From: Asaia bogorensis
GTDB taxonomy: Bacteria > Pseudomonadota > Alphaproteobacteria > SHVZ01
NCBI GenBank assembly: GCA_945897335.1
Contig: CAMDFP010000002.1
Coordinates: forward strand, 1 to 56,180
Length of the DNA: 56,180 bases
Direction: 5' to 3'
Position 1 is the stretch's first letter; every line of letters begins with the position of its first letter. Shown here one piece after another: positions 6,714-49,408 of the stretch. Under the pieces are notes generated by a model, which worked only from the letters and a program-made list of their open reading frames with translations, searched no databases and was not told the DNA's origin. A program made the translations under genes and the position numbers.

Positions 6714-7447
6714 CGGTCGCGGATGCGTGCCTGCACATCGGCATCTGCGAAGGTCACATCATGCATCGCCGCCTCGGCTTCGACCGCGGCCGGCAGCCGC
6801 TCCTTCAGCCCGCGAGTCAGCTGCGCCTTCAACAGCCGCAACGCCGCCGCCGGCTTGTCGGCCAGCTCCCGAGCGAGTCCGAGGGCCGCATCGACCACAC
6901 CGTCGCGCGGCACCACCGGGAAGGGCAGCCCGCGCTTCTCCAGCGCGCCGCCGTGATAGCTCCTGGCGCTCATCAGCATCTCCGATGCCAGCGCCGGCCC
7001 GAGCTTCTCCGGCAATAGCAGCGTCGAGCCCATTCCAGGAGTGAAACCGTACTTCATGAAGTTGGCGGAATAGAGCGCCTCGCGAGCCAGAACCACCATA
7101 TCAGCGTAGAGCCCGAACACCAGCCCGCCGCCCAGTGCGTGCCCCTGCATGGCGCTGATCACCGGCACCGGGCAGTCCAGCAACAGGCGATAGAAGCCCG
7201 CCTCGTCGAAGCGCGTGCGGCGTTCGGCGATTCCGATCAATTCTTCGATCGTGCCGCCGGCCAGGAAGATGCTGTCGAAGCCGTGCAGAACCACGGCGCG
7301 GGCCTCGGCGTCGGCGGCGATCTCAGCCATGGCATCGAACAGGCCGCCGACGAGCGCGCGCGTGAAGGTATTGCGGCCTTCGCGGTCCTCCATGGCCACG
7401 ACCCAGATGCCGTCGGCCTGTCGCGTGCGTCTTACGACTTCCGCCAC
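6698..7447 (-). CDS. Enoyl-CoA hydratase/isomerase-family decarboxylase (ECH2, PksI/CurF-ECH2-like) of the beta-branching cassette
   Basis: The crotonase fold begins at VVRRTRQADGIWVVAMEDREGRNTF... and contains MQGHALGGGLVFGLYAD. A GTG at 7447 is preceded by GGGAGGAGGG. The 383-aa ORF in the track (to 7849) is an upstream extension running through the ECH1 gene. Confidence 0.85.
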   Translation of the reverse strand: MAEVVRRTRQADGIWVVAMEDREGRNTFTRALVGGLFDAMAEIAADAEARAVVLHGFDSIFLAGGTIEELIGIAERRTRFDEAGFYRLLLDCPVPVISAMQGHALGGGLVFGLYADMVVLAREALYSANFMKYGFTPGMGSTLLLPEKLGPALASEMLMSARSYHGGALEKRGLPFPVVPRDGVVDAALGLARELADKPAAALRLLKAQLTRGLKERLPAAVEAEAAMHDVTFADADVQARIRDRWGNR

Positions 7448-8211
7448 GGCAACCCTCCTCCCTCGAGGAAGCGGCGGATACCTGTCATCACGCCTGGATC
7501 GGCGATGCGGGCGCAGATGAGATCGAGCGCACGTCGTTCCATCCCGGCATCGATCGGCGCCAGGTCGCGGAAATAGGCCTTGGCCGCAGCCACCGCACCG
7601 GGATCCATGCGATCGACCTTGATCAGCACGCGGCGAAGCGCGTCGTCCAGGTCCGGGGCAACCTCGTCGACCAAGCCGATCGCGCGCGCCTCGGTGGCGT
7701 CGATGCGCTGGGCGGTCAGCGTCAGCCGCCACGCCGCCTGCCAGCCGGTACGACGGACCAGGAAGGGCGCGATCGTCGCCGGCACCAGACCGAACAGCAG
7801 CTCGGTCAGGATGAAGCCGGTGCGCGGGGAGGCGAAGACCAGATCGCACGCCGCCGCCAGGCCGAGACCGCCGGCGCTGACCCGGCCGTCGACCGCGGCG
7901 ATGACCGTCTTGTCCACCTGTCCGAGCCGCATCAGCAACCGCCAGAACGGTGCGATGCGATCCTCGAGGTCGCCCGGCGTCGAAACCTCGGTGGCCGTCG
8001 CCTCGGCGAAATCCATGCCGTCGCAGAACACGCCGTCGCGACCGCGGATCACCAGGACGCGCAGGCCGTCATCCGCTTCCAGCGTGTCCAGCGCGTCGTT
8101 GAGCGCGACGATGAGCGCCGCGTTCAGCGTGTTGCCGGCGGCGGGACGCGCCAGCTCGGCGGTCAGCAGCGAGCCGCGGCGCGACAGGATGACGGGCGGG
8201 TTCAGCTCCAT
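7432..8211 (-). CDS. Enoyl-CoA hydratase-family dehydratase (ECH1, PksH/CurE-like) of the beta-branching cassette
   Basis: 259 aa. Crotonase-family sequence (LRVLVIRGRDGVFCDGMDF, AAVDGRVSAGGLGLAAACD), positioned between the HCS and ECH2 genes as in known HCS cassettes. Confidence 0.85.
   Translation of the reverse strand: MELNPPVILSRRGSLLTAELARPAAGNTLNAALIVALNDALDTLEADDGLRVLVIRGRDGVFCDGMDFAEATATEVSTPGDLEDRIAPFWRLLMRLGQVDKTVIAAVDGRVSAGGLGLAAACDLVFASPRTGFILTELLFGLVPATIAPFLVRRTGWQAAWRLTLTAQRIDATEARAIGLVDEVAPDLDDALRRVLIKVDRMDPGAVAAAKAYFRDLAPIDAGMERRALDLICARIADPGVMTGIRRFLEGGGLPWRKS
7453..7462 (-). promoter_or_regulatory. Strong Shine-Dalgarno site for ECH2 (inside the 3' end of ECH1)
   Basis: The minus strand reads GGGAGGAGGG-ttgcc-GTG(7447). 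Confidence 0.6.
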
Positions 8212-22600: not shown

Positions 22601-25600
22601 GCCGCCACCCCCTCGCCCTTGACGTAGCCGTCGGCACCTGCGTCGAACACCCGGCAGCGGCCGTCGGACGACGCGACGCCGAGACGCTTCACGGTCTCCT
22701 CTGCATCGGGGCTGAGCATGAGGCTGACGCCGCCGGCGACCGCGATCTCCGCCTCGCCATGGCGCAGCGCCAGGACGGCACGATGCACCGCGACCAGGCT
22801 GCCGGAACACGCGGTGTCGACCGCCTCGCTCGGGCCGCGGAGATCGAACAGCCAGGAGATCCGGTTGGGCAGCAGGGCCGCGATGTTGCCGAGAGCCATC
22901 TGCGCCCGTGCCGTCTCGTCGAACGGCACCAGGGCGGCGTATTCATTGACTTGGCTCGCGAAGAACACGCCGACCCGCCGGCCGGCCAGCCCCGTGACAT
23001 CGATCCCGGCGCTCTCGAAGGCGTTCCAGGTAGCCTCCACGACGAGCCGATGCTGCGGGTCCATGAGCTGGGCATCGCGCACGGAGATGCCGAAGAAGGC
23101 ATTGTCGAACCGATCCACGCCGTCGAGATAACCGCCGCGGCCGCCACGCCTTCCGGTGATCGTCACGCGATCCTCCGGCATCGCGCCGACGAGGTCATGA
23201 CCCGACTCCAGATGGCGCCAGAACGCGTCGACATCCGGCGCGCCGGGGAAGCGGCCGGCCATGCCGATAATGGCGATCGCACGATCGTCACCCGACAGGC
23301 GCCGTTCTTGCGGGGCGGGCGCAGCCGCCGGCGCCGTGACAGATGGGGGCACGATGGTCGGCGGTGGGGCTGCCGCCGGCGGTGCTGCGCCGCCGATGCC
23401 GTGCTCGGCCGCGAGATAGTCCGCCAGCCGGGTGATGGTGCCGTGGGCGAAGAAGGCCGCCGGCGACACCGTCACGCCCCAGCGCTCGGAGATCTGCACG
23501 GCGAAGTCCTTGAGCGCGATCGAGTCGAAGCCGAAATCTGCGAGGTTGGCGTCGACCGGCAGCCGCTCGGCCGGCAGCTTCATCAGCGCCGCCACCATCG
23601 CCACCAGCAGCGGCACCACCTCGGTGCCGCTGGACGACGCGGGTGTCGCGGGCACTGGCCGCGGCGGCTCGCTCGCGCGTTCCGTCAACATCGCCCGGGC
23701 CGCATCGGCATCGGTGGGGAAAACGGCAACCTGGGCGTCGCCCGAGGCGACGGCAGCGTCGAGAAGATCGAGCGCCTCGCCGCTGGCGAGCGGTCGCAGC
23801 CCCGACGCAGCGCTGAACAAGGCGGTACCCTCGCTCGACATCACCTGACGTCCCTCGGCCCAGAGCGGCCAGTCGACCGCGACCGTGCGCCCCTGCCGTC
23901 GGCCAGCCAGCCGCTCGGCCTCGCGCCAGATGGCGAAGCGGTCGGCAAATGCGTTGGCCGCGGCGTAGTCGCACTGGCCGAAGTCGCCGAGCTCCGAGGC
24001 CAGCGAGGCGAAGGCGACGAAGAGCTGGAGCGGTCGATCGCCGATCGCAGCATCCAGCGCCGCGAGGCCACCAGCCTTGGCGCGCATGACCGCGAGCATG
24101 TCGTCCCAGCGCTTCTCGCTGACGATGCCCTGGCCCGGCACGCCGGCGAGATGGAAGACGGCCGCAAGCGCATCGAACCTTGCTTCGGCGGCCACCAATA
24201 CCGAGGCGAGCTGTTCGATCTCCGCGACATCGGCCCGCCAATAGCCCGCCTTGCCGCCCGCCGCCTCGACGGCGGCGATGGTCGCCGCCACCGCCTCGCC
24301 CGGAACCGAACGGCCGACCAGCGCGATGCGGGCGCCATGGCGCCTGGCCAAGCGGACAGCGAGCGCGCGGGCCAGCACCCCGCCACCGCCCGTGATGAGG
24401 CAAGGAGCGCCATCGGTCAGCGGCAGCGGCGATGCCGCTGCTATCACCGGCTCCAGCACACGCCGCAGCCGCTCGCCGTCGGCCAGGCGGATCTCGCGCG
24501 GGCCGGCAACGCCGAGCGACAACTCCCGGACGATCGCCGGGCCGGCCTCGGGCGCGATCGCAGCGACCTCCAAGGCGCGCACATGGGCGCGTCCGCCGAA
24601 GAACGCGATCGACCGGCCGAACGCCACCAGCGCCGCATCCGACGGCGCACCGACATGCACCACGAGCACGGGCACGGCCGGCCCCTTGGCCCGAAGCACG
24701 GTGCGGACGGCATCGAGCAACGCCTCGCCCGTCCTTCCGCTTGCCAGCACGACCACAGCGGTGGCACCTGGATCGACGGCATCGACGACACCGTCGCCGC
24801 CGGCCGACCGCCACGCCGCCTCCAGCGCCCGGGTCATCGCCGGCGTTCCGCCGACCACGGCAAGCGTACCCGCCGCCATCGCCGGCGCAGGAGCTGGAGC
24901 CGGGCGCCAACGCGGTGCCATCAGGGTTGCGGGGTCGGCGGTGCGAACCTCGACCGCCCTCGCGATCGGTACGCCCGCGTCCTTTATGTCGATCCAGTAC
25001 GGCGACAACTCGAATGGATAGGCAGGCACCGAGACGCGCCGGCCACCGGCGCCGATGTCGTCGAGATCGATGGTCTCACCGTCCCGGTAGCGGGCGGCGA
25101 GCGCTTCCAGCCGCGTCCATGCCGGATCGGACGATCCATTCAACGGCGTACCGGTGAGCGCACGTTTGAGATCTGCGATCGTGCCGACCACCACGGCCCA
25201 GCGCCGCTCGAACTGGGTGCGGCCCGCGGCAAGCGTGCGTGCAAGGTCGTCGAGCCGAGGCTCCGTCCCCTCGAGATGGGCGGCGAGGTCAGCCATGCGC
25301 CGGGCCAGCGCCGTCGGGGTCTTGGCCGACACCAGGATGAGCTGCGGACCCGCCGCGTCTACTCGCTCGACCGCCGCGGCCTCCTCGATCACGATGTGGC
25401 AATTGGTGCCGCTGAAGCCAAAGGAGCTGACGGCGGCCGAGCGCGGCTGGCCTTGCGCCGATCGCCACGGCTCCAGGGTCGTCGGAACGCGGAACGGCGT
25501 CTCGCCCAGGCGAAGCCTCGGATTCTCGGCGCGGAAGTGCAGCGAGGGATGGATCTCGCCATCCCTGACCGCCAGCACCGCCTTGATGAAACCGCCGATT

Positions 25601-28600
25601 CCCGCGGCATGCGCGGCATGGCCGACATTGGTCTTGACCGAGCCGATGGCGGCGCCGCCGCGGGGCACCGACCAATCGGCCCAGGCCCGCGACAGGCCTT
25701 CGATCTCGATCGGGTCGCCCAAGGGCGTGCCGGTGCCGTGCGCTTCGACATAGCCGATGCGGTTGGGGTCGATGCCGTTGCGGCGATAGGTCTCGCGCAT
25801 GAGCGCCGCCTGGCTTTCCGGGCTCGGCGCCGTGATGCCGTTGGTCTTGCCGTCCTGGTTGATGCCGGTGGCAACGATCACCGCCTCGATGTGGTCGCCG
25901 TCGGCGAGCGCGCGATCGAGACGCTTCAGCACGACGACGCCGGCTCCCTCGCCCGGCACGAAGCCGTCGGCGGCGACGTCGAAGGTGGCGCAGCGGCCTT
26001 TAGGCGACAGCATGCCGGCGGTCCCCGCGGCGATGTTGAAGCCTTTAGTCGTGTTGACGAACACACCGCCGGCCAGCGCCATGTCGCACTCGTCGTCGAG
26101 CAGGCTGCGGCAGGCGAGGTGCACCGCAACCAGCGACGACGAGCACGCGGTGTCGACCGTCATCGCCGGACCCTTGAGGTTCAGCATGTAGGCGATGCGG
26201 GCCGACAGGATCGAGGCGGCATTGCCCATGAACGCGAAGGCCTGTGGCTCGATGCCGGCCTGGACCATGCGATGGGTGTAGTCGCCGCCATGGGCGCCAA
26301 CGAAGACGCCGCAACGCCTGCCGTCGAGCGCCGTCTCGCCGTAGCCCGCATCTTCCAGCGCGTGCCACGCCTCCATCAGGAACACGCGGTGCTGCGGATC
26401 GGTCAGCTCGGCTTCCTTGCCGGAGATGCGGAGCGCCAGCGGATCGAAGCCTTCGGCATTGGGCAGAAAACCGCCCCAGAGCTGGAACGGATCGGGCTTG
26501 CCATCAGGTCCCAGGTCCGCCCGCCAGCGCGACGGCGGCACCTCGCCGATGCCCGAACGCCCCTCGCGCAGCATGCGGCGGAACGCCGTGAGGTCGCCGG
26601 CATCGGCAAAGCGCGCGGCCATACCGATCACGGCGATGCGGCGATCTCGCTCGGTACCGCGCTCGACTTTTGCGGTCGAGGCGAACGAACTTTCAGCCGG
26701 AGCGCGCCCGGTCTCCGCGACCAGGGTGCCCAGATGGGCACCGAGGTCGGCGACCGTCGGATGGTCGAACACCACGGTCGGCCGGAGGTCGATGCCGAAC
26801 GCCGCGTTGAGCTTTTCGACCAGCGCCACGCCGAGGATCGAATCCAGGCCGTAGTCCATGAACCGCGCTCGCCGATCGATATCCGCGGGCGCCATGGTGA
26901 GAACGCCGGCGACCGCCTCGGTGAGGAAGCGCTCGAGCTCGCCCGACGTCGGCGCTGCCACGCGCGGCTGCGGCGTCGCCGCCATCGGCTGCGACACGAC
27001 CAGCGCGGCCGGCGCCTGATCACGCGTGGTGGACAGCACCGCCTGGATCATGACGCCGTCCTCGCCGGTAAGCCCCTCCGCCTCGACGGCCGGGAACCCC
27101 GCGGTGGCAAGCGCCTGGCGCCAGCCGTCCACAGACAGTACGGGCGAACCGGGCAGCCGCTCATCCTCGAACGCCCACCAGCCATCGGTCAGGCCGAAGG
27201 TCAGCGTGGCGAAGTCCTGCGCCTGGGTGACTTCGTTCAGCACGAGGGCGGCGCCGGGAGCCATGATGCCGTGCAGGCGCGTCAGCACGTCGCCGATCCG
27301 CCGCGTCGCATGCAGCACGTTGGAGGCGATCACCACGTCGAATGGCCCGGCGACGGTGACCTCGGCAGACAGTGGGGCCTCCAAGTCGAGGACCGCGAAG
27401 CCGACGCGCTCGTCGCCGCCGAACTCGCGCCGGGCGGCGCCGACGAAGGCGCGCGCGACATCCGTGAACAGGTAGCTGACGTCCGGACCAAGCCGGGCGA
27501 GCAACGCACGCGTGGCCCCGCCGGTGCCGGCACCGACTTCCAGAATACGCAGCGACCGACGGCCCGCAACCACTGTCGAGACGCGTTCGGCCAGCAGGCC
27601 GTTGAGGTGATCGGCGAGCGGGTTGCCGCGATAGACCGCCTCGACGAGGTCGCCACGGCCGCCCGGGAACAGCACCTCCATGGCAGTGCGCCGGCCGGTC
27701 AGGACATCCGGATGGCCGGCGGTGGCCGCTGCCAGAAGGTCGAGGAACGGCTTGGCCGCCGGCGGGGCGGCCGAGCGCAGCCCCTCGACGTCGGCGGACG
27801 CCGGTACATTCGCGAGCCGGACGACGTTGCCCTCGGCGGCAAGTACGCCACCGCGGACGAGCATGTCGATCAGCGCATCAAAGAGCCGGGCGCGAGCGTC
27901 GATGACGCGAAGCCGCCGGCGTGCCCAGGCGCGGGTGAAGGTGCTGCGGCCCATGTCGAACAGGCCGAGCCGACGCATCGCTTCACCCAGCGCCGTGCGG
28001 CCCCACTCCTCCGCCGCGGCGAAGACGGCGCCGTGGGCGCGGAGCGTGGCCGGATCGATGACCGCCGGTGTTAGTGTGGTGGACACCGTCGGGTTCGGCG
28101 CAGGCGGGACAATACGCACCCGTTCGAACGGATCGCCCGGCAGCGACACCCGGCGAGCGCCGGCAACGAGCGCTATTGGCAGATCGACGGTTGAAACCGG
28201 CACCGTCGCCGACGCGATCCGGTCCAGGCCGGCCAGCACGGCCGCGCGATCCTTGGCCATGAATCCGGCGGCCACCGGCAGTCGGGCGCGGCCGGACGAC
28301 AACGTGAATGAGAGGTCGCGCAGCTCCATCTCCGGCGTCGCCGTCACCGCGACTCTGATGGCCGCTGCCCGGCGCTTCAGGGCTGCCTCGGTCCGGGCGG
28401 AGATCGCAATCGGGAACGGGCCCGAGGCTGGCGCGCGCGGCGCAAGGTCCGGCGCTTCCTCGATTACGATATGGACGTTGGTGCCGCTGAAGCCGAAGGA
28501 GCTGACGGCCGCCCGCCGCGGCGCGCCGGCGACCCGCGGCCATGGCTCGGCCCGGGTCGGCACCGTGAACGGGCTGACCTTGAGGTCGATGCGCGGGTTG

Positions 28601-29851: not shown

Positions 29852-30658
29852 TCATGGGTTCAACATCATTTCGGCAAGCATGGCGCTTCCGGAGAAGGAC
29901 TGCCCGCCATCCGCAACCAGGGTGGCACCGGTCAGCAGCGAGGCGATCGGCGAGGCGAGGAACGCGGTCACTGCGGCGACGTCCTCGACCGTCCCGAAGC
30001 GGCCGATCGGCACATATTCGGCCAGCGCCGTCACATCGTCGCCGGTCAAAAGGCGCCCGAGCCCCTCGGTGTTCTCGATCGGCCCAGGCAACACGCTGTT
30101 CGCCCGGATGCCGTACTTGCCCCACTCCAGCGCGAGGCCGCGCATCAGGCTGTCGATGCCGGCCTTGGCGGCGCCGACATGGGCCTGGAAGGCGAACGGC
30201 ATGATGGCATTGGTCGCCGACACGAAAACGATGTTGCCACGCGTCCGCTTGAGCTGGGCGAAAGCGGCGCGGGCGGCGTTGAAGGAGCCGAGGAGATCGG
30301 TCGAGATCACCTTCCGGAAACCTTCCGCGCTCATCTGCTCGGCCGGCGCCGGGAAGTTCGCAGCGGCGCCGCAGACCAGGACGTCGGCCGGGCCGAAGGC
30401 CGTCTCGCTCTGGGCCAGGGCCGCCTCGAGCGCAGCGTAGTCCTGCACGTCGCATTGTACTGCCAGCGCCTTGGTTCCCTCGGCTTCGAGCTGGTGGCAG
30501 CAAGCGTCGAGCTTCTCGATGGTACGGCCGGCGAGCACGACGCGCGCGCCGAGCGAGCCCATGCCGCGGGCAATGGCGAAGTTGATGGTGCCGCTGCCAC
30601 CGGTGACGAACACGGTGCGCTGCTCGAACAGGTTCGCTACGAAAAATCGCTTAAGCAT
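29852..30658 (-). CDS. Short-chain dehydrogenase/reductase of the 2,4-dienoyl-CoA reductase (DECR)-like subfamily
   Basis: Starts MLKRFF at ATG 30658; the track start at 30949 is an extension inside the upstream PKS gene. Motifs: VFVTGGSGTINFAIA, VCGAAANFPAPAEQMS, HVGAAKAGIDSL in place of the classical YxxxK, and NSVLPGPIENTEG. This pattern matches DECR-type SDRs. The ATG lies 3 nt before the PKS stop (ATGCTTAA). Confidence 0.8.
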   Translation of the reverse strand: MLKRFFVANLFEQRTVFVTGGSGTINFAIARGMGSLGARVVLAGRTIEKLDACCHQLEAEGTKALAVQCDVQDYAALEAALAQSETAFGPADVLVCGAAANFPAPAEQMSAEGFRKVISTDLLGSFNAARAAFAQLKRTRGNIVFVSATNAIMPFAFQAHVGAAKAGIDSLMRGLALEWGKYGIRANSVLPGPIENTEGLGRLLTGDDVTALAEYVPIGRFGTVEDVAAVTAFLASPIASLLTGATLVADGGQSFSGSAMLAEMMLNP

Positions 30659-33600
30659 CGTCCACCACTTCAAGCGCCATTGCCTCGTCGACATCGATCT
30701 CGCCGGCCTCGAGCCGAGCCAGCAACTGCTCCAGCGTCGCCGCCGTCCCTCGATCCGGGTTCGGAGCGGCACCGCTCTTCGCCGCTTCGCGGGAGAGGAA
30801 TTCCGCCTCTGCGTTGACGGGGGCCGCCTGCCGCCGTGCCTCGATCCGCTCGCGCAGGCGCCGCGTCTTGCCCTTCGCCTCGGCGACGCGGCGGTCGACG
30901 GACCCATTCTCTTCGGGCCGAAGCGCCGGAGCGGTCGTCGCGAGCGCATCGACGAATTCGATCTCGATGAAGCGGGCGAGATCGCGCACGGTGGCGAAGT
31001 TGAACAGGGCCGTGGTCTTTAGCTCGATGCCGAAGCGGGCGTTGATGCGGCGCACCAGCTCGACGCTGATGATGGAGTCTGCGCCGTAGTCGGCGAAGCT
31101 GCCGCTCGGTTCGACCTCGCCCGGAGCCAGATGCAGCGCCTCGGCCACCACGACGAGCAGCGCCGCCTCGACCGCGCCCGTCGGCCCGCCCGCAGCCAGC
31201 GCCGATCGGATCTCAGCAACCTTCGCCGCCGTGCGCTCACCCAGCGGCGCCCGCGCCAGCAGCACGCTCTCGACCTCGTCGGGCCCGGCGAGCCCGGTCG
31301 CCCGCGGGTCACGGAAGCGAGCGGCCTCCAACGCCGTCGCCCAGCCGGCGCGCGACAGCAGCGGCGCGCCCGGCAGGCGTATCTCCGGGTCGTCGAAGCC
31401 CCACCACTCCGGCGTCAGGCCGAAGGTGAGCGTGTTGAAGTCATGCGCCGAGGTCGCTTCCTTCAGCACCAGCAGGCCGTCGACCTTCAACATCCGGCCG
31501 AGATGGCCGAGCGTCTCGGAAATGCGCGCCGTCGCATGCACGACGTTGGCGGCCAGCACCACATCGACCGAGCCATCGGGTATTCCCTGCGGGCCGCCGG
31601 GACGGCTGGCGTCGAGCAGCTTCGTCTCCAGCCCGGCGCGGCCTTCGAAGCGGCGGCGGGCGGCGACCAGAAAGCTCGGCCCGATGTCGGTAAAGACATA
31701 GGTCATCTTGGCGGCGAGCGACGCCAGCGCGTCGAGCACGAAGGCGGTGGTGGCGCCGGTCCCGGCACCGATCTCGAGCACCCGAACCTTTGCCTCGGGA
31801 TGACGCGTCAGGAGGCGGCGGACCTCCGCGACCACCGTCTCGGCCGCCAGCCGCTGCAGCCAATCGACCAGGCGGTTCCCCCGATAGATTGCCTGTACCA
31901 GGCGGTCTGAGCCGTCGGGGAACAGAAGCGTCGTGGCCTTGACCCGGCCGGCGACGACGTCGGGCACTGCCGGCACGGTGCGATCGAGCAGCGCCACATA
32001 GGGCGCGGCCTCGGGTCCCGCATCGAGCAAGGTTTTGCGCAGCGCCGTCGACGACGAGGTCGAAGGCGCAGCCTCGGCTACCGTCCGCGCCGCTGCAGCC
32101 AGTCGCGTCATGGCCGGGCCGTTCGGCGCCGGCAGCGGCGTCTTGGCGAGCGTCTCGGCCAGCAGTGCCCGGGCATAGCCGTCGACGGCGGCGAAGCGGC
32201 CGGGATCGAGATCGGCCGGCGGCGGGTTGGCGGCGATGAACGCCTCCAGTTCGGCCACCGCCTGGTCGTTCGCCCGCCCGGCATCGACACCGAGCGGACC
32301 AAGAAGGTCATCGCGCAGCTTCAGCACCAGCACGTGCCGGGACGTGCCGGCGAGCACGGCCGACAAGGCGGCGAAGCCCTCGTCATTGCCGATCGGCCAG
32401 ACGCCGAGGCGACGCATCTGCGCCAAGCTGGTGGCCTCGGCCATGCGTCCAGCCTCGCCCCACAGGCCCCAGTCGATCACCCGCGCCCCGGCACCGCCGC
32501 GGGCGAGCACCAGCGCGTCGATGAAGGCGCTCGCCGCCGCATAGGCCGACTGGCCGCGATTGGCGGTATAGGCGTTGCTGGAGGAGAAGGCACAGACGAA
32601 GCCGGTCTCGATGCCGTCGAGCGCCGACAGCAGATTGATCGCGCCCGCCGCCTTCGGCGCGACGACGGCCCGGAAGTCGCGCTCGGCAAGGTCGCCGACG
32701 AGGCCGTCATGCATCACCAGCGCGGTATGGAAGACGCCGTCGAGTTGCCGCGACTGCCCGGCAGCCTCGGCAACGGCAGTGCCGAGCGCAGCCGGGTCGG
32801 CGAGATCGGCGACGCGGTGGACGATGCTGCCGCGGGTGAGACCCGTGAGCCCCTCGGCTTCATCCGGCGAGGGCGGCCGGCGACCGATGAGCCAGACCGA
32901 GGCACCGTGACGCTCGGCCAGATGCCGGGCGAGCGCGCGGCCAATGCCGCCGGCGCCGGCGATCACGTAGCGGCCGTCCTCGCGGAAGGTCTGGGCGGGC
33001 ACCAGGGCCACCGGCTTCAGCCGCTTGGCGAGCCACCTGTCCCGCCGCCAGGCCAGCTCGGCATCCGCCGGCGCTTCGGCATCGCCACACGCGGCAGCGA
33101 CAAGGCCGGCTCGGGACGACTCGTCGGCCCAGGCGCGGGCGTCGAGGTCGATGAGGCGCACAGCAAGATCCGGCAAGTCGCGGCCGATCGCCTTGGCCAG
33201 CGCCGTCACCGCCGTCGGCTCCGGCATCGCTGCTTCGCCATCCACCAGCGCCTGCGCATTGCCGGTGACGACGCGGAGCGTGACGCCGGTCTCGGCAAGC
33301 CCGGCTCCGGCGATCACCTTGGCCAATCTCAGAAGAGCGATGGTCGCAGTCTCGCGCTGGCGCTCATGCGCGGCGACGTCGGCCGGAGCGTCTTCGTCCG
33401 GGCGCCAGCCGCCGAGGAAGACGATGCGCGCGATCGGCTGCGGCACGTCGGCGAGCCAGGCCTTGAGCCGCTCCAGCCCATGCGCCTGCCGTCCGCGCAT
33501 CGTCAACAGCACGGCACCCTCGCCCGCCGCAGCGGCCAGCGCCGCACCGAGTCCGCCGTCACCGTCATGCCCGACCACAAGTGTGATACCCGCCTGCGCG

Positions 33601-45600: not shown

Positions 45601-45980
45601 GAGAGGCCGATCACGGCGACCGGAACCGCCCGCCCCGGCTCCACCGCCTGCGGCTGAGGTCCGATGGTCGGATGCCGCACCGGCGCGACCGGCGCATCGC
45701 CGACGACGCCAAGCCCGGCCAGCCGTGCCACCAGCGTCGCCGGGGTCGGGCATTCGAACAGCGTCTCGATGCCGAGGGTGAGGCCGAAGCCCCGGTTGAT
45801 GCGATCGATCAATCGGACGGCGAGAAGCGAACCGAGGCCGAGATCGGCGAAGCTGCGGTCCGCGCGCCGGTCGTCGATACCATGACCGAGCACGTCGCCG
45901 ACGATGGCCATCACCGCAGCGGCGAGCAACGGGTCCGCAGGCACGCCAGAGCGGCCGAGCCTGTCCGAGTAGCGGATCAT
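30651..45980 (-). CDS. Trans-AT modular polyketide synthase, middle subunit (5109 aa): ACP | KS-DH-KR-cMT-ACP | KS-DH-KR-ACP | KS-DH-KR-cMT-ACP + C-terminal tail
   Basis: The start is taken as ATG 45980 (MIRYSDRLG), which forms an ATGA overlap with the upstream stop. The track start at 46286 is a 102-codon extension inside the upstream gene. Three complete KS domains and no AT. Confidence 0.95.
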   Translation of the reverse strand: MIRYSDRLGRSGVPADPLLAAAVMAIVGDVLGHGIDDRRADRSFADLGLGSLLAVRLIDRINRGFGLTLGIETLFECPTPATLVARLAGLGVVGDAPVAPVRHPTIGPQPQAVEPGRAVPVAVIGLSGRFGPAGSIAAFWAAVRAGRSLVGPLPRERRRLVGGRGAGVVGGFLDGIALFDAGLFGLSPREARATDPQQRLFLEQAWLALENAGYPVRRISGRRVGVYVGASPSGYEKLLEAEGAAADAWGMTGNLTALLASRISYHLDLRGPALTVDTACSSSLVALDLACQGIARGDCEMALVGGVGLFIDPDALGLMKSAGMLSPAGRCATFDAAADGIAIGEAVAAVLLKPLDQALADRDRIDAVVLATATNQDGRSNGITAPNSRAQAEVIRLAMQRAGIDADGIDLVEAHGTGTPLGDPVEIAGLAAALADRRREEPVRLGSAKANLGHSSEAAGLVGLIKAVASLRQGEIPALAGFHALNPRIELAGKGLAVADVAQPWPRSAGRVRRVGISSFGLAGTNAHAVVEEGRPSAASSNDTGPWLFVLSAETDPLLASRAGGLATWLRGDGITVPLPDVAATLARGRSHFSRRAALVAGDQAELLKGLDALASGGATPAPQPGPLADAAARYLAGEDDAWADASTFAAVDLPDQPLQRISHWPAVALAADTGDETVIALSPDDPMIGDHRIGGVAILHAAALLHLALDAIDQPALAAVRWVRPFTVPDGGASLRIISPGADGRITVSDGNGREIASFQPRSLPPASPPDMAAVLAMQAAAETIVTGGIAEPAPGVLLGPCYRGFDRLALGREGAVGTVVIGAGAPSRLRLLDAAIQAAAAVAGAGDGAALRPRMPVSLAALVRHGEPGLGTMHLLVRRRAASGAETTVDIDVLSSSGTPLLSLTGLTLREMTASVAAPAPVADPAPRTMKLDWTEAGALTRGALESRATLMVAAAGDKLADRLADALSGSGPVTRITSDAVADAAAWVSAAVGPVRLLLLPSRTTDGTDPAVVQSAVDAGATLILALARAIDPAGCDLDMIAVSRGAYVVEGSEQQGDPAQAAVLGLAKVVFGREVPGASARLFDLATHESIHIDVAALLADPGAWTGEPVAIRASRRFERRLEPASWQAGVAAPVRRVLIAGGFGRLGRAVARHAAVNWRAHVILVGRKPIDDARAAFLDELRGLGVAADGVVADMTTTDGAHAAFAAAGGPVDLVVQAVVDPVFGRASTVRPAEFLASLRPKIAGLVALRAAVVAAGAGRLVVFSSIGAFAGFPGALGQSAYAAQCAFEDAIVTGGNGTETPMLVVHWGLWADPSWRADLLAQVKAEGTFPMPTDACLAALDAMLADGGRQYVHAALSEQVWRAMGAAAVSGPAAAAIAAAAEVAAGLRSTDPAHHALVERHALSSLTTALAETGMLGQPGSREPMADVAARLATLPRLSGLAHAVIDLLGDAGAFRRAGAELHWVARPPLDPSLAATMRALGSSAGAAADLLDHCVTALPAVLRGEVPATDILFPRGSMERVEPIYRDQPGLEAANRIVAETVAALAAVRPGLAAIEIGAGTGATTAAILDRLGEDAPAPTRYLYTDVSAGFVQHGRAHYERSWLDYGVLDIERDPATQGLAAAFDVAIASNVLHATAGIDATLGHAAALLRPGGLLVLNENVRVEAFATLTFGLLDGWWRAADPARRLAGGPLLDQARWRAALRRAGLDPVAELAPGSSDASQVVIVALKAGTSKPGAPAMSAAPRPVAATRARPTPAAEAGGVTERLRVIVARALEIAADDIDPERPFAEYGVDSIISPQIADEIADGFGVVLRSTDLFSHATIEALAAHVSGLLPAPAAPVKREEMSPPPAVPAQRRDDVEVRAIGQDHPRAASAVHGQRIAIIGMAGRFPGAPDLDTFWDNIAAGRASIREIDRFPVPPSYDPGTGTPIPINARWAGLIDDFDRFDPLFFHITPAEAETMDPQQRLLLEEAWRALEDAGIVPARLAASRTGVFVGASANSYVAPGAPSLQTLGGSMAILSARLAYLLDLKGPTFPIDTGCSSSLVALHLACRSLASGECELAVAGGVAINLLSDDILAYLSDAGMASPSGVCRTFDDGADGFVPGEGVGVAVLKRLEDAERDGDRIRAVILATGINQDGRTSGITAPSAASQTALEIEVWQRAGIDPSTIRLAEAHGTGTRLGDPIEVNALTDAFRRFTDRTGFCAIGSVKTNIGHAMAAAGTAGLFKAVLALEHAVIPPTLNFRTPNRHIDFARSPFRVATETMSWPADVPRRAVVSSFGFSGSNAHIVLEAAPTRPAAGRAAGPWIFPLSAKSRASLDRLAAALAVRLESAAERDLDDIAWMLSVRRTHHRHRLAVVAGDTATLAAALKGHRAASPSAPIDVERAVAARTLMDLAAAYEAGAAVPFERLFDGPGRIVSLPGYPFDGTRYWNPLSRAVVVSTPASNAGMAIRVDADDWRLHQHQVDGAPMLPAAAVIELAAAALARRDGRPPAGLADLMWTRPIAGTGPFDLRLEPEAGETTLRLTHAGVEHATLAMTTSSASPTTLSVAALQARLGRVVEGAEMYEAAAARGIAYGPAFRLIDRLWSGDGEALARFVARPGLSARGAATLDAAMQTAAGIGTAAGAPAGLFVPVALGAVRWFADSAPVWVHARAKRIDRDGAVFDIVLAAADGSPVAVLERLVARAMAGIASEPDVATRRLVPVWTDAPVTAPLVSDRALVVVAAEAARRRWMAAAPDAILLAADHLDGLTGAVAGRRQVDVVLMLDAATDLAELDTLPLATAVDRIDPQPALDLTLGVVRGLAGVTSVRFLVASPGPADAPRHRALAALLRCVAAETPGWWVRALALEGGEVSPDVILTALPEARDAPDDVRILDGRRQVRTLAAAPEGTGTGLRDGATCVISGGTGGIGLLLAEHLIRHHRARVALLSRGAPPAAAVARLAALEAAGSVMLVEGDVADARALEAGLDRVRRSLGPIHAVFHLAGTRRDGIAATKSSSDLAAVLRAKVAGTLALDRLTRDDPLDLFCTFGSTAAEFPTFGQGDYAAANGFLAGFAAWRAGAGGRRGRTLTIAWPLWLDGGMTVPADLVALLRREAGFVPLPAGAAFTALDAAVSETGPVQVVLHGVGDVAAGLRRLGLAEAARAEAPSARRAVSAADYVARVLAEVARLPANRIEAEIPFEEYGIDSMMITRLNAAFERDLGAVPKTLFFEYRTPREVAGYLDREHGEALARLVGAGTSETSATLAPAARSSVTVMTPPVSADDAIAIIGIAGIYPGAEDLEAFWRLLRDGTDLIREIPKERWRLAGFYDPDRDNPSTSHAKWGGFIDGADRFDPRFFDMSPIEAESLDPQARKFLEAAWWALEDAGYGRHSLFAGDVRPERRAGGVFVGLMHSDYPLFAAEARARGELAITASGYWNAANRVSHFLDFRGPSVAVDTACSASLTAVHMAMQALRAGDCTVAIAGGVNLSLHPMKYWVLSKAGFSASDGRCRSFGEGGDGYVPGEGAGVVVLKPLARACADGDRIHAVIRASAVNHGGRTSGFTVPNPVAQGELIVDALARAGVAPGSISYVEAHGTGTALGDPIEINGLRRAFGAAGCPIGSVKSNVGHLESAAGIVALTKVVLQMRHRTLAPSLHSAVPNPDMGIEGSGFRVVQKAETWTVPDGQALRAGISSFGAGGANVHLIVEAPPPVAASGDDGQPKPLLLSARSVAALRSLAGRLAENLAAADGPALVDIAGTLALGREAMRHRLGFVAVDRTQAAARLKAFAEGADAGTHRGEATPGSRNAPPPLGLDAAIEAWVTGAAVDWRRFFPAGFSRTGLPLYPFERRRCWLSTRPDPAFKATAKVDAIVLRSDDPLVADHRVAGTLLAAGALLLARAAAHAGARAPFRLTDIAWTAPVPVPAEGTKIAVVETVTPAGRTLRLGNATTLTLATETPREAAASDLADLMARCPTALSHDRVYALLAAAGVDYGPSYALLDTVHIGDGEAVGRLGGAVQAATEDLAPGVLDAAMQLCFTLVGEGGEGLRPASVESVNVWRPLVMARFAYARRTAAGPGRLVVVIDLLDGDGSLVARMDGLTLRGARPRLDGDDAPALHVLRPVWREVAVRRPLAQAGITLVVGHDGDGGLGAALAAAAGEGAVLLTMRGRQAHGLERLKAWLADVPQPIARIVFLGGWRPDEDAPADVAAHERQRETATIALLRLAKVIAGAGLAETGVTLRVVTGNAQALVDGEAAMPEPTAVTALAKAIGRDLPDLAVRLIDLDARAWADESSRAGLVAAACGDAEAPADAELAWRRDRWLAKRLKPVALVPAQTFREDGRYVIAGAGGIGRALARHLAERHGASVWLIGRRPPSPDEAEGLTGLTRGSIVHRVADLADPAALGTAVAEAAGQSRQLDGVFHTALVMHDGLVGDLAERDFRAVVAPKAAGAINLLSALDGIETGFVCAFSSSNAYTANRGQSAYAAASAFIDALVLARGGAGARVIDWGLWGEAGRMAEATSLAQMRRLGVWPIGNDEGFAALSAVLAGTSRHVLVLKLRDDLLGPLGVDAGRANDQAVAELEAFIAANPPPADLDPGRFAAVDGYARALLAETLAKTPLPAPNGPAMTRLAAAARTVAEAAPSTSSSTALRKTLLDAGPEAAPYVALLDRTVPAVPDVVAGRVKATTLLFPDGSDRLVQAIYRGNRLVDWLQRLAAETVVAEVRRLLTRHPEAKVRVLEIGAGTGATTAFVLDALASLAAKMTYVFTDIGPSFLVAARRRFEGRAGLETKLLDASRPGGPQGIPDGSVDVVLAANVVHATARISETLGHLGRMLKVDGLLVLKEATSAHDFNTLTFGLTPEWWGFDDPEIRLPGAPLLSRAGWATALEAARFRDPRATGLAGPDEVESVLLARAPLGERTAAKVAEIRSALAAGGPTGAVEAALLVVVAEALHLAPGEVEPSGSFADYGADSIISVELVRRINARFGIELKTTALFNFATVRDLARFIEIEFVDALATTAPALRPEENGSVDRRVAEAKGKTRRLRERIEARRQAAPVNAEAEFLSREAAKSGAAPNPDRGTAATLEQLLARLEAGEIDVDEAMALEVVDDA
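30955..31185 (-). other. ACP domain
   Basis: FADYGADSIISV, Ser codon 31074-31076. It is followed by a tail of about 100 aa with no recognisable catalytic motif. Confidence 0.85.
31300..31990 (-). other. C-methyltransferase domain
   Basis: VRVLEIGAGTGATT, VLAANVVHAT and LTFGLTPEWW. Confidence 0.8.
32445..33640 (-). other. KR domain
   Basis: YVIAGAGGIGRALARHL and GQSAYAAASAF; ends near VIDWGLWGE. Confidence 0.75.
33680..34400 (-). other. DH-like domain (variant first motif)
   Basis: ADHRVAGTLLAAGA (HxxxGxxxx with Ala instead of Pro), YGPSYALL and LDAAMQLCF. Confidence 0.7.
34878..36150 (-). other. KS domain (elongating)
   Basis: VDTACSAS (Cys 35622-35624), EAHGTGTALGDPIE and KSNVGH. Confidence 0.9.
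36250..36480 (-). other. ACP domain
   Basis: FEEYGIDSMMIT, Ser codon 36381-36383. Confidence 0.85.
36700..37790 (-). other. KR domain
   Basis: CVISGGTGGIGLLLAEHL and GQGDYAAANGF; ends near IAWPLWLDG. Confidence 0.75.
37870..38600 (-). other. DH domain
   Basis: HQVDGAPMLPAAA (HxxxGxxxxP), YGPAFRLI and LDAAMQTAAG. Confidence 0.8.
39075..40320 (-). other. KS domain (elongating)
   Basis: IDTGCSSS (Cys 39831-39833), EAHGTGTRLGDPIE and KTNIGH. Confidence 0.9.
40460..40690 (-). other. ACP domain
   Basis: FAEYGVDSIISP, Ser codon 40572-40574. Confidence 0.85.
40820..41500 (-). other. C-methyltransferase domain
   Basis: AAIEIGAGTGATT, AIASNVLHAT and LTFGLLDGWW. Confidence 0.8.
42020..43130 (-). 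other. KR domain
   Basis: VLIAGGFGRLGRAVARH and GQSAYAAQCAF; ends near VVHWGLWAD. Confidence 0.75.
43240..43960 (-). other. DH-like domain (variant motifs)
   Basis: GDHRIGGVAILHAAA (HxxxGxxxx with His instead of Pro), GPCYRGF instead of YGPxF, and LLDAAIQAAA (DxxxQ). Confidence 0.65.
44382..45625 (-). other. KS domain (elongating)
   Basis: VDTACSSS (Cys 45141-45143), EAHGTGTPLGDPVE and KANLGH. Confidence 0.9.
45735..45965 (-). other. N-terminal orphan ACP domain (completes the upstream split module)
   Basis: FADLGLGSLLAVRL, Ser codon 45828-45830 (GS instead of DS). Confidence 0.8.
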
Positions 45981-48900
45981 GGCCGCATCCTCTCGCGGTT
46001 CCACGCTTCGAGCCCAGTCATGCCGGGCCGGCGCTCCGTCGTGATCAACAGGTAGCGCAGCAGACCCTCGCGGAGCGCGCGGCCGAAACCGTCCCACGAC
46101 CGCTGGACGCGTTCGACCAGATCGACACCAGCGCCGGCCTCGCGTCCGCGCTCGTCCGCCAGCATGCCATCGAGGCCCGGATCGACCAGGAAGTTCGCCA
46201 CCTCGCGGCTGGCATCGACGCAGGCGGCAATCCGAAAGCCGTGACGAGCCAGGATGTCGGAGTAATCCGTCAGCGTGCTGGTCCACGAGCCGACCTCAGG
46301 GAGCGCGATCGGCGCCACGGTGTCGGCCGCGCAGTCGATCAGCGCCAGTGTCGCGTCATCGTCGAGATGGGCGGCCAGATTGGCGAATAGCCCGTCCTTG
46401 TCGCGGATGTGGTGGCCGACCTCGAAGCCGAAAGCGAGCTGGAAGCGACCCGGAAACGCATCGACGGCGCTGTCGCGGCAATGGATCTGGATCCGGCCCG
46501 CGAGCCCGGCCGCGTTCACGCGTTGCCGTGCCGCGGCCGCCTGGTCGGGTGAGATCGTGTAGCCCACACCCTCGATATGCGCGTGCCGGCCGGCCAGATC
46601 GATCAGGTCGGTGGCGAAGCCGCAGCCGAAATCCAGCACGCGGCGGACCTTGGCGAAGTCCACGCCGTCGAAGACCACGGCACGCATCTCGCGCTGGGCT
46701 TCGACCATCAGGCGCCAATGCGCCGGATTGGCAGAGGGATCTTGCATGGTCCGGGTCCAGGAGAATCCGGCCACCTGCTCAGCGAACGGCGCCAGGGTCA
46801 GGTAGAGCGGTCCGGTCCGCTCGCCACCGGCGCGCGCGACGTAGTCGTAGAAGGCAGGTACCACGTCCGCTGCCGTCACGGTGACATCGAGCGGGAAGCG
46901 TCGCCGCGCGAAGATGCGTCGGGGGCGTTCAGGACGCGGCCCCGCGCCCGACTGCTCGATCACGACATGGGCGCTGACGCCGCCGAGGCCGTAGGCATGC
47001 ACGCCGGCGCGCCGGATAGCACCGGCGGGCCAGAGTCCGGGCTCGGCGTGGAGGCTGAGGCCGCTGCCTGCCAGCGCCAGCTCCGGGTTCGTGGTCCGCA
47101 ACCCCGCAACGCCGGGCCGGAAGCCGTCGGACACTGCCAGGATCGCGGCGACCAGCCCGGCAATGCCACCGGCCGCATCCAAGGAGCCGACTGCCGGCTT
47201 GACGCTGCCGACCTGCCAATCGAGCGCCTCGTCCTTCACATGCAGGGTGCGGAACGCGCTCCTGATCGCCGAGATTTCCGACAGGTCTCCATGCTTCGTC
47301 CCGGCTCCATGCGCCTCGATGTAGCCGGCGCCGAAGGGGGTCGTGCCAGCATCGCGCCAAGCCGCGACGATGGCGGCCGCCTGGCTTACGGCGCTCGGGA
47401 GCGTCAGCGAGCCGGCACTGCCGCCGGCATGACGCACCGCCGCGCCGGCCACCACCGCCTGCACACCATCACCGTCGGCTCGAGCGCGATCGAGCCGCTT
47501 CAGGACCACCACGCCGACGCCCTCGCCCCGCGCCTGGCCGGAGGCCGCGGCATCGAAAGCAAGACAGCGGCCGTCCCCCGCCAGGATGCCGAGGCGCGCC
47601 AGGCTGGCGGATTCGGCGTCGGACAGCAGCAGGCTGACGCCGCCGACGACCGCGATCTCGCACTCGCCGTGGCGCAGCGCCTCGATCGCGCGATGAACAG
47701 CGACCAGGCCGCTGGAGCAGGCGGTGTTGACTGTCTCGCTCGGCCCACGCCAGTCGAAAGTGAACGAGGTTCGGTTCGCCACCATGGACGGAAGGCTGCC
47801 CGGCACCGCCAGCGGGTCGGCGCCCAGATCGCCGCGACGCTCGATGAAGCTGGTCGAGTACATCGCCGCGAACACGCCGACAGCGCGGCCTCTGAGAGCC
47901 TGGGGATCGAGCCCGGCGTCTTCGAGCGCCCGCCATACCGTTTCCAGGAACAGGCGCTGGTGGGGATCCATCAGTGCCGCTTCCGTCGGCGCCAGCCGGA
48001 ACGGCTCGGGGTCGAAGTCCTCGACGCCGTCGATGAAGCCGCCGAGCGCCAAGCTGGATGCGCCGGCGAACCGCCCGGCCGGCGGCGGCCTGAGCGCCGA
48101 GCCGCCCCTCCGCAGCAGGGCTCGGAATCCATCGATGTCCTCGGCGCCGGGGAAGCGGCAGGCCATGCCGACCACCGCCGCCTTTCGAGTGTCCGGATCG
48201 GCCGACGGCGTGGTGCTGACGACCGGCGCAGCCACGCCTCCGGACAGGGACGCCAACCGGTCCAGCCCTTCCAGGACCTCCGTGGCCGGCAGGCCGAAAT
48301 CGAGCAGACAGGCGATCTCGTCGACACCGATGGCGGCCACGCGGCGCATCATGTCGCGGCACTCGTCGAGCGTGCCGATCAGGCTGGCGGTGCGGAGATA
48401 GCGCTGGAAAGCGAAATCGGCGATGCGGTCGCGTTGCGCGCCGTCGATCTCACCCGCGCCGGGTGCGGCGCGCGCGTGCTGGTCGAGCGCGCCGCGCACA
48501 TAGCTGGTCATCGGCCCTTTGACCCGCGCCAGGGTGCGCGCGGGATCCGGATCGCAATAGGCGTGAAGCATCAAAGTGACGCGGCCGGCCGCCGGATCGA
48601 GCCCGGCGTCGCGCCGCGCCACCCGATAGATCCGGAGGCGCTCGGCCACATCGTCCATGCTGCCGCCCAGCACCATGGTCAGGACGTTGAAGCCGGCGCG
48701 TCCGGCCCAGGCGAAGGTCTCGGGGTTCCCCGTGCTGGCGAGCCATACCTTCAGATCCGGTTGCAGCGGACGCGGATGCGGCGTGACATCGATCGGTTCG
48801 CCCTTACCCGAACGCCGCTTGGCCGAGCCGCCGGCCCAAAGCTGCCGCATCTCATCTAGGCGCGCGCGCAGCACGCCCTTGGCGTCGGCGAAGGTATCCG

Positions 48901-49408
48901 GCGACAGCGCGAAGTCGTTCGGATTCCAGCCGCTGCCGAAGGCCATGTCGACGCGGCCCTGCGACAGCTGATCGACCATCGCCCAGGCCTCGGCCACTTC
49001 CAGCGGGTCGTGAAGCGGCAGGATCACGCTGCCGGCGCGGATGCGGATGCGGGCGGTGACTAGGGCCACCGCCGCGGCCAGCACCGCCGGATTCGGATAG
49101 GGCCCGCCGAACCGGTCGAAGTGCCGCTCCGGCAGCCAGACCGCCTCGAAGCCCGCCGCGTCCGCGCGCCTCGCCGCCTCGATCACCAGACCGTAGGGAT
49201 CGCTGTCAACGCTTTCGGCGGCGAAGAACATGACGCTGAGCCGAGGCAGCGCGGCCTCCGGCAGCGCTGCCGGGGTTGTGATCGGTGCCGTCGCCCTTGC
49301 CGGTTTCGCAGACGGCACTGCCAGCGCCTGGGCGCCCTTGACGCCAATACGAGCGCGAAGGCGCGTGGCCTCGGCGAGCAGGGCGTCGCGATCGGGCCGG
49401 GGGCTCAT
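45977..49408 (-). CDS. Carrier-less tri-domain PKS accessory protein: luciferase-like monooxygenase (LLM) - KS0 - SAM methyltransferase
   Basis: 1143 aa. The ATG at 49408 overlaps the upstream stop (ATGA) and its own stop overlaps the next start (ATGA 45977-45980). See the sub-features for motifs. No ACP motif occurs anywhere in the protein. Confidence 0.9.
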   Translation of the reverse strand: MSPRPDRDALLAEATRLRARIGVKGAQALAVPSAKPARATAPITTPAALPEAALPRLSVMFFAAESVDSDPYGLVIEAARRADAAGFEAVWLPERHFDRFGGPYPNPAVLAAAVALVTARIRIRAGSVILPLHDPLEVAEAWAMVDQLSQGRVDMAFGSGWNPNDFALSPDTFADAKGVLRARLDEMRQLWAGGSAKRRSGKGEPIDVTPHPRPLQPDLKVWLASTGNPETFAWAGRAGFNVLTMVLGGSMDDVAERLRIYRVARRDAGLDPAAGRVTLMLHAYCDPDPARTLARVKGPMTSYVRGALDQHARAAPGAGEIDGAQRDRIADFAFQRYLRTASLIGTLDECRDMMRRVAAIGVDEIACLLDFGLPATEVLEGLDRLASLSGGVAAPVVSTTPSADPDTRKAAVVGMACRFPGAEDIDGFRALLRRGGSALRPPPAGRFAGASSLALGGFIDGVEDFDPEPFRLAPTEAALMDPHQRLFLETVWRALEDAGLDPQALRGRAVGVFAAMYSTSFIERRGDLGADPLAVPGSLPSMVANRTSFTFDWRGPSETVNTACSSGLVAVHRAIEALRHGECEIAVVGGVSLLLSDAESASLARLGILAGDGRCLAFDAAASGQARGEGVGVVVLKRLDRARADGDGVQAVVAGAAVRHAGGSAGSLTLPSAVSQAAAIVAAWRDAGTTPFGAGYIEAHGAGTKHGDLSEISAIRSAFRTLHVKDEALDWQVGSVKPAVGSLDAAGGIAGLVAAILAVSDGFRPGVAGLRTTNPELALAGSGLSLHAEPGLWPAGAIRRAGVHAYGLGGVSAHVVIEQSGAGPRPERPRRIFARRRFPLDVTVTAADVVPAFYDYVARAGGERTGPLYLTLAPFAEQVAGFSWTRTMQDPSANPAHWRLMVEAQREMRAVVFDGVDFAKVRRVLDFGCGFATDLIDLAGRHAHIEGVGYTISPDQAAAARQRVNAAGLAGRIQIHCRDSAVDAFPGRFQLAFGFEVGHHIRDKDGLFANLAAHLDDDATLALIDCAADTVAPIALPEVGSWTSTLTDYSDILARHGFRIAACVDASREVANFLVDPGLDGMLADERGREAGAGVDLVERVQRSWDGFGRALREGLLRYLLITTERRPGMTGLEAWNRERMRP
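46000..46880 (-). other. Class-I SAM-dependent methyltransferase domain (O-MT-like; distinct from the embedded cMT domains)
   Basis: Motif I is RVLDFGCGFATDLIDLA, followed by FQLAFGFEVGHHIRDK and DDATLALID. The sequence family clearly differs from the E(I/V)GAGTG(G/A)T cMT domains. Confidence 0.75.
46955..48185 (-). other. KS0 domain (second catalytic His replaced by Ser)
   Basis: VNTACSSG (Cys 47717-47719) and EAHGAGT are present. The N(I/V)GH motif reads KPAVGSLD (Ser codon 47183-47185). Confidence 0.85.
48250..49240 (-). other. Luciferase-like (flavin-dependent) monooxygenase domain
   Basis: LSVMFFAAES, GFEAVWLPERHFDRFGGPYPNP and DMAFGSGWNPNDF: a TIM-barrel LLM signature of the kind found fused to or associated with natural-product synthases. 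Confidence 0.85.

Follow-up and report, generated by a model that had tools for sequence, protein, structure and literature searches.

A fused oxygenase, non-elongating ketosynthase and O-methyltransferase without a carrier domain as the likely core of a polyketide alpha-hydroxylation bimodule in Asaia bogorensis

Introduction

What a polyketide synthase (PKS) protein can contribute to an assembly line when it has no carrier domain of its own is the question raised by a 1143-amino-acid (aa) protein encoded in Asaia bogorensis. Its gene lies on the minus strand of contig CAMDFP010000002.1 (assembly GCA_945897335.1), of which positions 1 to 56,180 were analysed and are hereafter called the window. 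The protein joins a luciferase-like monooxygenase (LLM), a ketosynthase (KS) and a methyltransferase (MT), and is placed between two megasynthases. Here we propose that it is likely to be the catalytic core of an alpha-hydroxylation bimodule that does not elongate and to which an O-methyltransferase (O-MT, or OMT in domain strings) has been added, within a patellazole-like trans-acyltransferase (trans-AT) PKS, and that it is the orthologue of PtzB from the patellazole (ptz) pathway. The term alpha-hydroxylation bimodule has been defined for a flavin oxygenase at the junction between a module that ends in an acyl carrier protein (ACP) and a KS0-ACP, KS0 being a ketosynthase that does not elongate (Winter et al. 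2023, PMC10952193).

Results and Discussion

Domain layout and the non-elongating ketosynthase

The open reading frame (ORF) at 45977..49408 (minus strand) starts with ATG and encodes 1143 aa. Pfam models matched Bac_luciferase at residues 70-364, the N and C halves of ketoacyl-synt at residues 409-767 and Methyltransf_12 at residues 925-1020, with class-I methyltransferase models collectively covering residues ~916-1041, and no PP-binding (carrier) match was obtained in the protein. An AlphaFold2 (AF2) model built from a 48-sequence family alignment (mean pLDDT, the per-residue confidence score, 84.3) contains three well-folded domains preceded by a helix at residues 7-23 and a low-confidence linker at residues 24-51. 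The leader helix is probably a docking or dimerisation element. The features of the gene are as follows:

45977..49408, minus strand: LLM-KS0-OMT gene, predicted PtzB orthologue (ORF and translation, Pfam and NCBIfam matches, identity to PtzB)
49340..49390, minus strand: leader helix, residues 7-23 (AF2; family-wide pattern DRxALLAEAxRLRARI)
49241-49339, minus strand: disordered Ala/Pro linker, residues 24-56 (AF2 pLDDT <50 at residues 24-51)
48245..49240, minus strand: luciferase-like monooxygenase, predicted to depend on flavin mononucleotide (FMN), residues 57-388 (TIGR04020; PuwE structure, PDB 6KET)
46934..48196, minus strand: predicted non-elongating KS0, residues 405-825 (Pfam, alignments, neighbour-joining tree)
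47717-47719, minus strand: Cys564 of the KS0, catalytic Cys kept
47309-47311, minus strand: His700 of the KS0, in EAHGAGT, first catalytic His kept
47183-47185, minus strand: Ser742 of the KS0, at the position of the second catalytic His
46997-46999, minus strand: His804 of the KS0, clade-specific (family and KS alignments)
46019..46864, minus strand: predicted PKS O-methyltransferase, residues 849-1130, with the S-adenosylmethionine (SAM) motif DFGCGFATD (full-length alignment to StiD/StiE)

The replacement of the second catalytic His is seen in two comparisons. HMMER, aligning the KS with chain 7ZMA, a trans-AT bimodule structure, puts 'GSVKPAVGSLDAAGG' over 'GSAKSNIGHCESAAG' at the column of Ser742, and in the alignment of the window's ketosynthases the same column is His in all nine other KS domains. 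The original prediction, made from the sequence letters, had described a leader, an LLM, a KS with a Cys-His-Ser triad and a SAM-dependent MT, without any carrier domain, and had taken the whole as a non-elongating tailoring module. Pfam, NCBIfam and AF2 agree with this four-part layout, the profiles that were named for it (Bac_luciferase or TIGR04020, ketoacyl-synt, Methyltransf_12) were all matched, the codons of the triad are exact and all other checked coordinates hold; the non-elongating tailoring role is upheld, and the KS0 signature recurs throughout the family.

Conservation of the three-domain protein

That such a fusion had not been described before, as first thought, proved incorrect, since PtzB has the same carrier-less layout and more than 50 tri-domain homologues exist. 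At least 52 sequence clusters of LLM-KS-MT proteins, 1100-1300 aa long and with 45-97% identity, came out of a word-indexed protein search; among their sources are both Candidatus Endolissoclinum faulkneri strains (PtzB), Azospirillum sp. B4, Methylosinus, Methylogaea oryzae, Marinivivus, Falsiroseomonas, Roseomonas and several metagenome-assembled genomes (MAGs). A HMMER library search with the whole protein gave mostly multi-KS megasynthases and added little to these. The catalytic Cys and the first His are kept in 53 of 53 aligned family members, none of which has the second His: Ser takes its place in 49, Ala in three and Thr in one. Mean identity to the window protein is alike across the three domains (0.61, 0.60 and 0.65). 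Measured against one homologue of 87% identity (L017), dN/dS was 0.11 for the LLM, 0.15 for the KS0 and 0.12 for the O-MT, and 0.77, a sign of weak constraint, for the leader; comparisons with the more distant homologues L006, L002 and L001 were saturated or distorted by GC bias and were left unused. The three domains are thus under purifying selection and none of them is decaying.

Some relatives deserve mention in their own right. The 285-kb plasmid pOB3b1 of Methylosinus trichosporium OB3b, a model methanotroph that can be cultured, holds a homologous trans-AT PKS that includes an LLM-KS0-OMT gene (NZ_CP023738.1, ~37-93 kb), and in this assembly an IS4 transposase lies within the cluster region. 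A 4.5-kb contig with 97% identity has been binned as the MAG 'Rhizobium sp. Q54', an assignment that looks doubtful because the closest named relatives belong to other genera (Azospirillum sp. B4 with 75%, Ca. Endolissoclinum faulkneri with 60-61%). A literature search found no product for the Azospirillum or Methylosinus clusters, and searches for an earlier account of an oxygenase-KS0-OMT protein or for the patellazole structure yielded nothing specific.

Known bimodules, carriers and the path of the chain

Previous studies offer close counterparts. MupA with the MmpA KS0 (mupirocin), TmlA with the TmpA KS0 (thiomarinol) and OocM with the OocN KS0 (oocydin) each place a TIGR04020-family LLM and a KS0 at the junction of an ACP-ending and a KS0-starting protein, followed by an ACP, as is the case here. 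The window likewise shows an LLM of the MupA/Atu3671 type, a KS0 right after the oxygenase, an upstream polypeptide that ends in an ACP and a further ACP after the KS0. What sets it apart from these discrete bimodules is the fusion of oxygenase and KS0, the addition of an O-MT and the location of the ACP on a separate protein. On the thiomarinol plasmid, tmlA (the gene of the MupA homologue) ends 3 nt before tmpA and in the same frame, and from this arrangement the fused LLM-KS0 appears to be only one small step away. A hydroxylase in cis to the KS0 has also been noted for patellazole (PMC10952193), and the order oxygenase then KS0 is known in the pederin, labrenzin, cusperin, oocydin and lasonolide pathways (PMC9600693). 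Around the gene, the following features were mapped:

49405..49408, minus strand: ATGA stop/start overlap between the upstream protein and the LLM-KS0-OMT protein (sequence; also in related loci L002, L003 and L006)
45977..45980, minus strand: ATGA stop/start overlap between the LLM-KS0-OMT protein and the downstream protein (sequence; also in L001, L002, L003, L005 and L006)
~49432..49656, minus strand: C-terminal ACP of the upstream protein, FADLGLDS (phmmer domain map; conserved in Methylosinus and a Rhodospirillaceae MAG)
~45726..45965, minus strand: N-terminal ACP of the downstream protein, FADLGLGS (phmmer domain map; an ACP with a G/N-S motif also starts PtzC and the Methylosinus and MAG homologues)
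49957..52881, minus strand: upstream elongating module with KS at ~51757-52881 and ketoreductase (KR) at ~49957-50496 (domain map)

As predicted, both ACPs and both ATGA junctions are present, and the splitting of the module across three polypeptides is real and is conserved in relatives. In Methylosinus trichosporium and in the Rhodospirillaceae MAG the block reads KR-cMT-ACP, KS-KR-ACP // LLM-KS0-OMT // ACP, KS-(DH)-KR-cMT-ACP, KS-..-KR-ACP, KS (cMT, C-methyltransferase; DH, dehydratase; // gene boundary), with the gene boundaries at the same places and ATGA at both junctions. The upstream PKS ORF does not start at position 56031, as had been supposed: it spans 49405-56180 (minus strand) in the window, where it is cut by the window end with no stop before it; on the 75-kb metagenome contig from which it comes (ENA ERZ27280311 k141_1933371) its called length is 4797 aa. 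From its domains, the upstream KS-KR module would deliver a beta-keto or beta-hydroxy chain. The upstream ACP is the probable site of hydroxylation, and the downstream N-terminal ACP is probably both the acceptor of the KS0 transfer and the site of O-methylation. In the window and in all checked relatives (L001, L002, L005 and L006) the ACP that follows the O-MT has GLGS, GVGS or GLNS ahead of its phosphopantetheine Ser where GLDS is usual, whereas the upstream ACP shows the canonical form.

The closest known counterpart is PtzB from the patellazole trans-AT PKS of Candidatus Endolissoclinum faulkneri L2 and L5, which has the same LLM-KS0-OMT order, no carrier and the same Cys-His-Ser ketosynthase, and is 60-61% identical over residues 5-1141 in both strains. 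The PtzB/PtzC junction has the same ATGA overlap, PtzC starts with a GLGS ACP as does the window's downstream protein, and the two downstream proteins are colinear with 47% identity over 3448 aa. On the basis of layout, full-length similarity and synteny on the PtzC side, the 1143-aa protein is predicted to be the PtzB orthologue. PtzB is ~108 aa longer, having between KS and OMT a full KS-flanking linker that the window protein does not have. This belongs to a wider pattern of two length classes at residues 820-890 of the window protein: short forms such as this one have ~25 residues between the last KS strand (819) and the O-MT lid helix (849), and long forms (PtzB, Methylosinus) have ~110 extra residues that match a RhiE-like KS flanking linker.

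On the upstream side the agreement with ptz ends: PtzA, ~31% identical to the window's upstream protein, is not its equivalent, and this side of the window fits Methylosinus and the MAG better. Several observations weigh against our proposal. PtzA ends after a KS, lacking the KR-ACP that the window keeps in its upstream KS-KR-ACP, and no KR-ACP remnants were found by tblastn (E<=10) in the gap between ptzA and ptzB; therefore, a relay from upstream ACP to KS0 to downstream ACP is not universal in the family. The neighbour-joining tree, which separates the LLM-linked KS0s from elongating ketosynthases, carries no support values; the pTM of the AF2 model is 0.50, which makes the placement of the domains relative to each other unreliable; and no flavin reductase gene was found in the window. 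The ptzA-ptzB gap itself, of 1.7-3 kb with 28-29% GC, precedes ptzB in both ptz loci (L001, 7008-10001; L005, 8319-10001).

Because PtzA lacks the KR-ACP, a part for the KS0 as hydroxylase scaffold has to be weighed. Taken to its limit, the KS0 would be a scaffold or activator only and would not relay the chain, which would either be loaded by the upstream KS straight onto the downstream ACP or move from one ACP to the other. The N-terminal ACP of PtzC is apparently the sole carrier available to the last KS of PtzA; moreover, OocM activity in vitro depends on its KS0, and MupA also binds the downstream ACP (PMC10952193). We nevertheless regard this explanation as unlikely, although it is the strongest of the alternatives to be considered. 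The invariance of Cys564 and of the first His, together with the low dN/dS of the KS0, is more than a pure scaffold needs; in vitro, acyl chains on the upstream ACP are taken over by the MmpA KS0, which then transfers them (PMC10952193); and the free-living homologues keep both ACPs.

The oxygenase and its chemistry

The LLM matched NCBIfam TIGR04020 (MupA/Atu3671 LLM) at residues 57-388 with 409.8 bits against a cutoff of 244.45. Its closest solved structure is the oxygenase domain of PuwE (PDB 6KET, E 6.6e-86), aligned end to end over 322 residues without large gaps. PuwE is a PKS/nonribosomal peptide synthetase (NRPS) protein of the cyanobacterial puwainaphycin lipopeptide pathway and, unlike the window protein, has no KS0-OMT pair attached. 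The puwainaphycin pathway yields a 2-hydroxy acid. The original prediction had the LLM oxygenate an ACP-bound intermediate, either by alpha-hydroxylation or by Baeyer-Villiger-type insertion, and of these the former stands and the latter is disfavoured: the domain falls in the PKS/NRPS oxygenase subfamily, of which the characterised members MupA and OocM alpha-hydroxylate ACP-bound chains. MupA acts before ketoreduction and solely on the upstream ACP, where its substrate is a beta-ketoacyl chain (PMC10952193).

Sequence by itself cannot tell hydroxylation from a reaction that goes further, be it Baeyer-Villiger-type insertion or chain shortening driven by alpha-hydroxylation, as proposed for CalD (calyculin) and MndB (mandelalide). 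The oxygen-insertion modules of OocK, LbmC-Ox and sesbanimide resemble the present case in having on-line flavin oxygenases at a split module, but this type does not describe the window protein. The oxygenases of these modules belong to a different class, dependent on flavin adenine dinucleotide (FAD). In trans-AT PKSs, insertion modules have a KS-DH, monooxygenase, ACP context and do not precede a KS0 (PMC9600693). In addition, the nearest solved relative comes from the 2-hydroxy acid pathway of PuwE, the KS0 carries the clade marker of the thiomarinol hydroxylation KS0 (see below), and an O-MT placed directly after LLM-KS0 is understandable if the hydroxyl stays free. We therefore consider a reaction beyond hydroxylation improbable, somewhat more so than the scaffold explanation.

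A clade marker in the ketosynthase

The KS0 has a second unusual His. His804 lies in VHAYGLGG where canonical ketosynthases read VSSFGxGG, and it is present in every family member but in no canonical KS, a distribution that could suggest a residue, such as His804 itself, standing in for the missing base, so that the KS would condense and the module would add a C2 unit. As a compensating base, His804 was rejected. The TmpA KS0 of thiomarinol (related locus L012, tmpA 7045-8600) has the same marker in the form GIHSYGAGG, but it has kept the second His and lost the first (EAQGMGN), the reverse of the window KS0. Since two KS0s with different lost histidines both carry it, His804 is better read as a clade marker than as a replacement base. 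Furthermore, among 120 matches every fused LLM-KS protein with a complete KS was without one catalytic His, and the module has neither a KR nor a DH of its own for a new beta-keto group. Condensation by this KS is thus very improbable. The partners of the other LLM-KS fusions included a DH-like domain plus another methyltransferase type, and ACP-thioesterase (TE).

LLM-associated KS0s, whether fused as in the ptz type or discrete as in TmpA, read V-H-(A/S)-Y-G in place of VSSFG, and this motif may serve as a sequence marker of hydroxylation-linked KS0s. The window holds a second KS0, the last KS of the 6389-aa protein (10675-29844), at ~13730-14830 (minus strand), in which EAQASGS replaces EAHGTGT and the first His is lost; it belongs to a terminal KS0-ER-ACP-TE module (ER, enoylreductase).

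The methyltransferase

The MT aligned over 275 residues, including the N-terminal lid, with the O-MTs of StiD (PDB 6ECW, E 7e-56) and StiE (PDB 6ECX, E 4e-53). Its top PDB matches were all StiD/StiE O-MTs (E 1e-53 to 1e-56), and no C-methyltransferase (C-MT) structure was matched at E up to 0.001; as a control, a C-MT of the window matched the C-MTs of DisA, CurJ, LovB, PsoF, AprA and the citrinin PKS. Reciprocal phmmer found no similarity at E<=1e-3 between this MT and the five C-MT domains embedded in the neighbouring megasynthases. The expectation that the domain is an O-methylating enzyme unlike these five is therefore sustained, and by sequence comparison it is predicted to be a PKS O-MT of the StiD/StiE type, not a C-MT. 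That it is a C-MT like the others of the assembly line is the least probable alternative of all, since only its Pfam matches, to generic class-I methyltransferase models, leave room for it, and both the structure matches and the phmmer comparison stand against it. The invariant pair His999-His1000 was examined as catalytic residues; StiE has Gly-Leu there, and no claim is made.

StiD and StiE of the stigmatellin cis-AT PKS (PDB 6ECU-6ECX) have the same full-length O-MT domain, lid included. Their O-MTs sit inside elongating cis-AT modules, whereas here the O-MT follows a KS0 and its substrate would be alpha,beta-dioxygenated. O-MTs of the StiD/StiE/CurL class methylate beta-hydroxyls, and psymberin carries an alpha-hydroxy-beta-methoxy unit. 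Because the solved relatives act on beta-hydroxyls, and with the psymberin unit as precedent, an alpha-hydroxy-beta-methoxy product is favoured over the alpha-methoxy product implied at first. It is possible, but we hold it doubtful, that the O-MT instead methylates the new alpha-hydroxyl, which would give an on-line alpha-methoxy group without methoxymalonyl-ACP; in this view the LLM-KS0 fusion would also be a self-contained hydroxylase-KS0 complex. The StiD/StiE class is not known to methylate alpha-hydroxyls.

Proposed mechanism

Taken as an alpha-hydroxylation bimodule with an added O-MT, the proteins would work in five steps. The upstream module, whose KS, KR and ACP domains are observed, would extend the chain. 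By homology with MupA, the alpha-carbon of the acyl chain would then be hydroxylated on the upstream ACP by the LLM with reduced FMN and O2, probably while the chain still carries its beta-keto group, which the upstream KR would reduce afterwards. Cys564 of the KS0 would next take the chain and pass it, with no condensation, to the N-terminal ACP of the following protein, as suggested by the Cys-His-Ser triad and by the transfer activity of the MmpA KS0. On that ACP the StiD/StiE-type O-MT would methylate one of the two vicinal oxygens, after which the next KS would elongate the chain. Cohesion among the three polypeptides would come from the N-terminal helix and from translational coupling at the ATGA junctions.

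The locus and its relation to patellazole

No match to Acyl_transf_1 was found in any megasynthase of the window, in which RhiE-like and CurL-like linkers are present, and no discrete AT gene was found inside the window. The accessory genes of the ptz pathway have been listed as two P450s, a PfaD-type ER, a DCR-like short-chain dehydrogenase/reductase (SDR), a C-like protein and a beta-branching cassette of KS, 3-hydroxy-3-methylglutaryl synthase (HMGS) and enoyl-CoA hydratase (ECH) (PMC3851785). The accessory set of the window (204-10678 and 29852-30949) parallels this list; it includes an ECH, an HMGS, a free KS and a 2,4-dienoyl-CoA-reductase-like SDR, along with:

204-1634, plus strand: PfaD-type trans-ER
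1361-2953, plus strand: P450
2937-4289, plus strand: P450
4286-5110, minus strand: metallophosphoesterase
5382-6713, minus strand: 443-aa protein with weak similarity to WS/DGAT- and PapA5-like condensation enzymes

Because the megasynthases are AT-less and the accessory set mirrors that of ptz, the locus, which comes from an environmental metagenome, is predicted to be an orphan patellazole-related trans-AT PKS. In the window a TE closes the assembly line after the 6389-aa protein, and ptz has two further PKS genes; the products of the two pathways probably differ.

Conclusions

With the window protein, the known class of alpha-hydroxylation bimodules gains a well-conserved example from a free-living source, though no conceptual surprise. 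Since oxygenase, KS0 and O-MT are joined on one chain of 1143 aa, it is a convenient subject for structural and in vitro studies of how these parts cooperate. As the window and its relatives share the module block and the accessory genes with the patellazole pathway, which belongs to an uncultured obligate symbiont, culturable access to patellazole-like chemistry may come through relatives such as Azospirillum sp. B4 and Methylosinus trichosporium OB3b with its plasmid pOB3b1.

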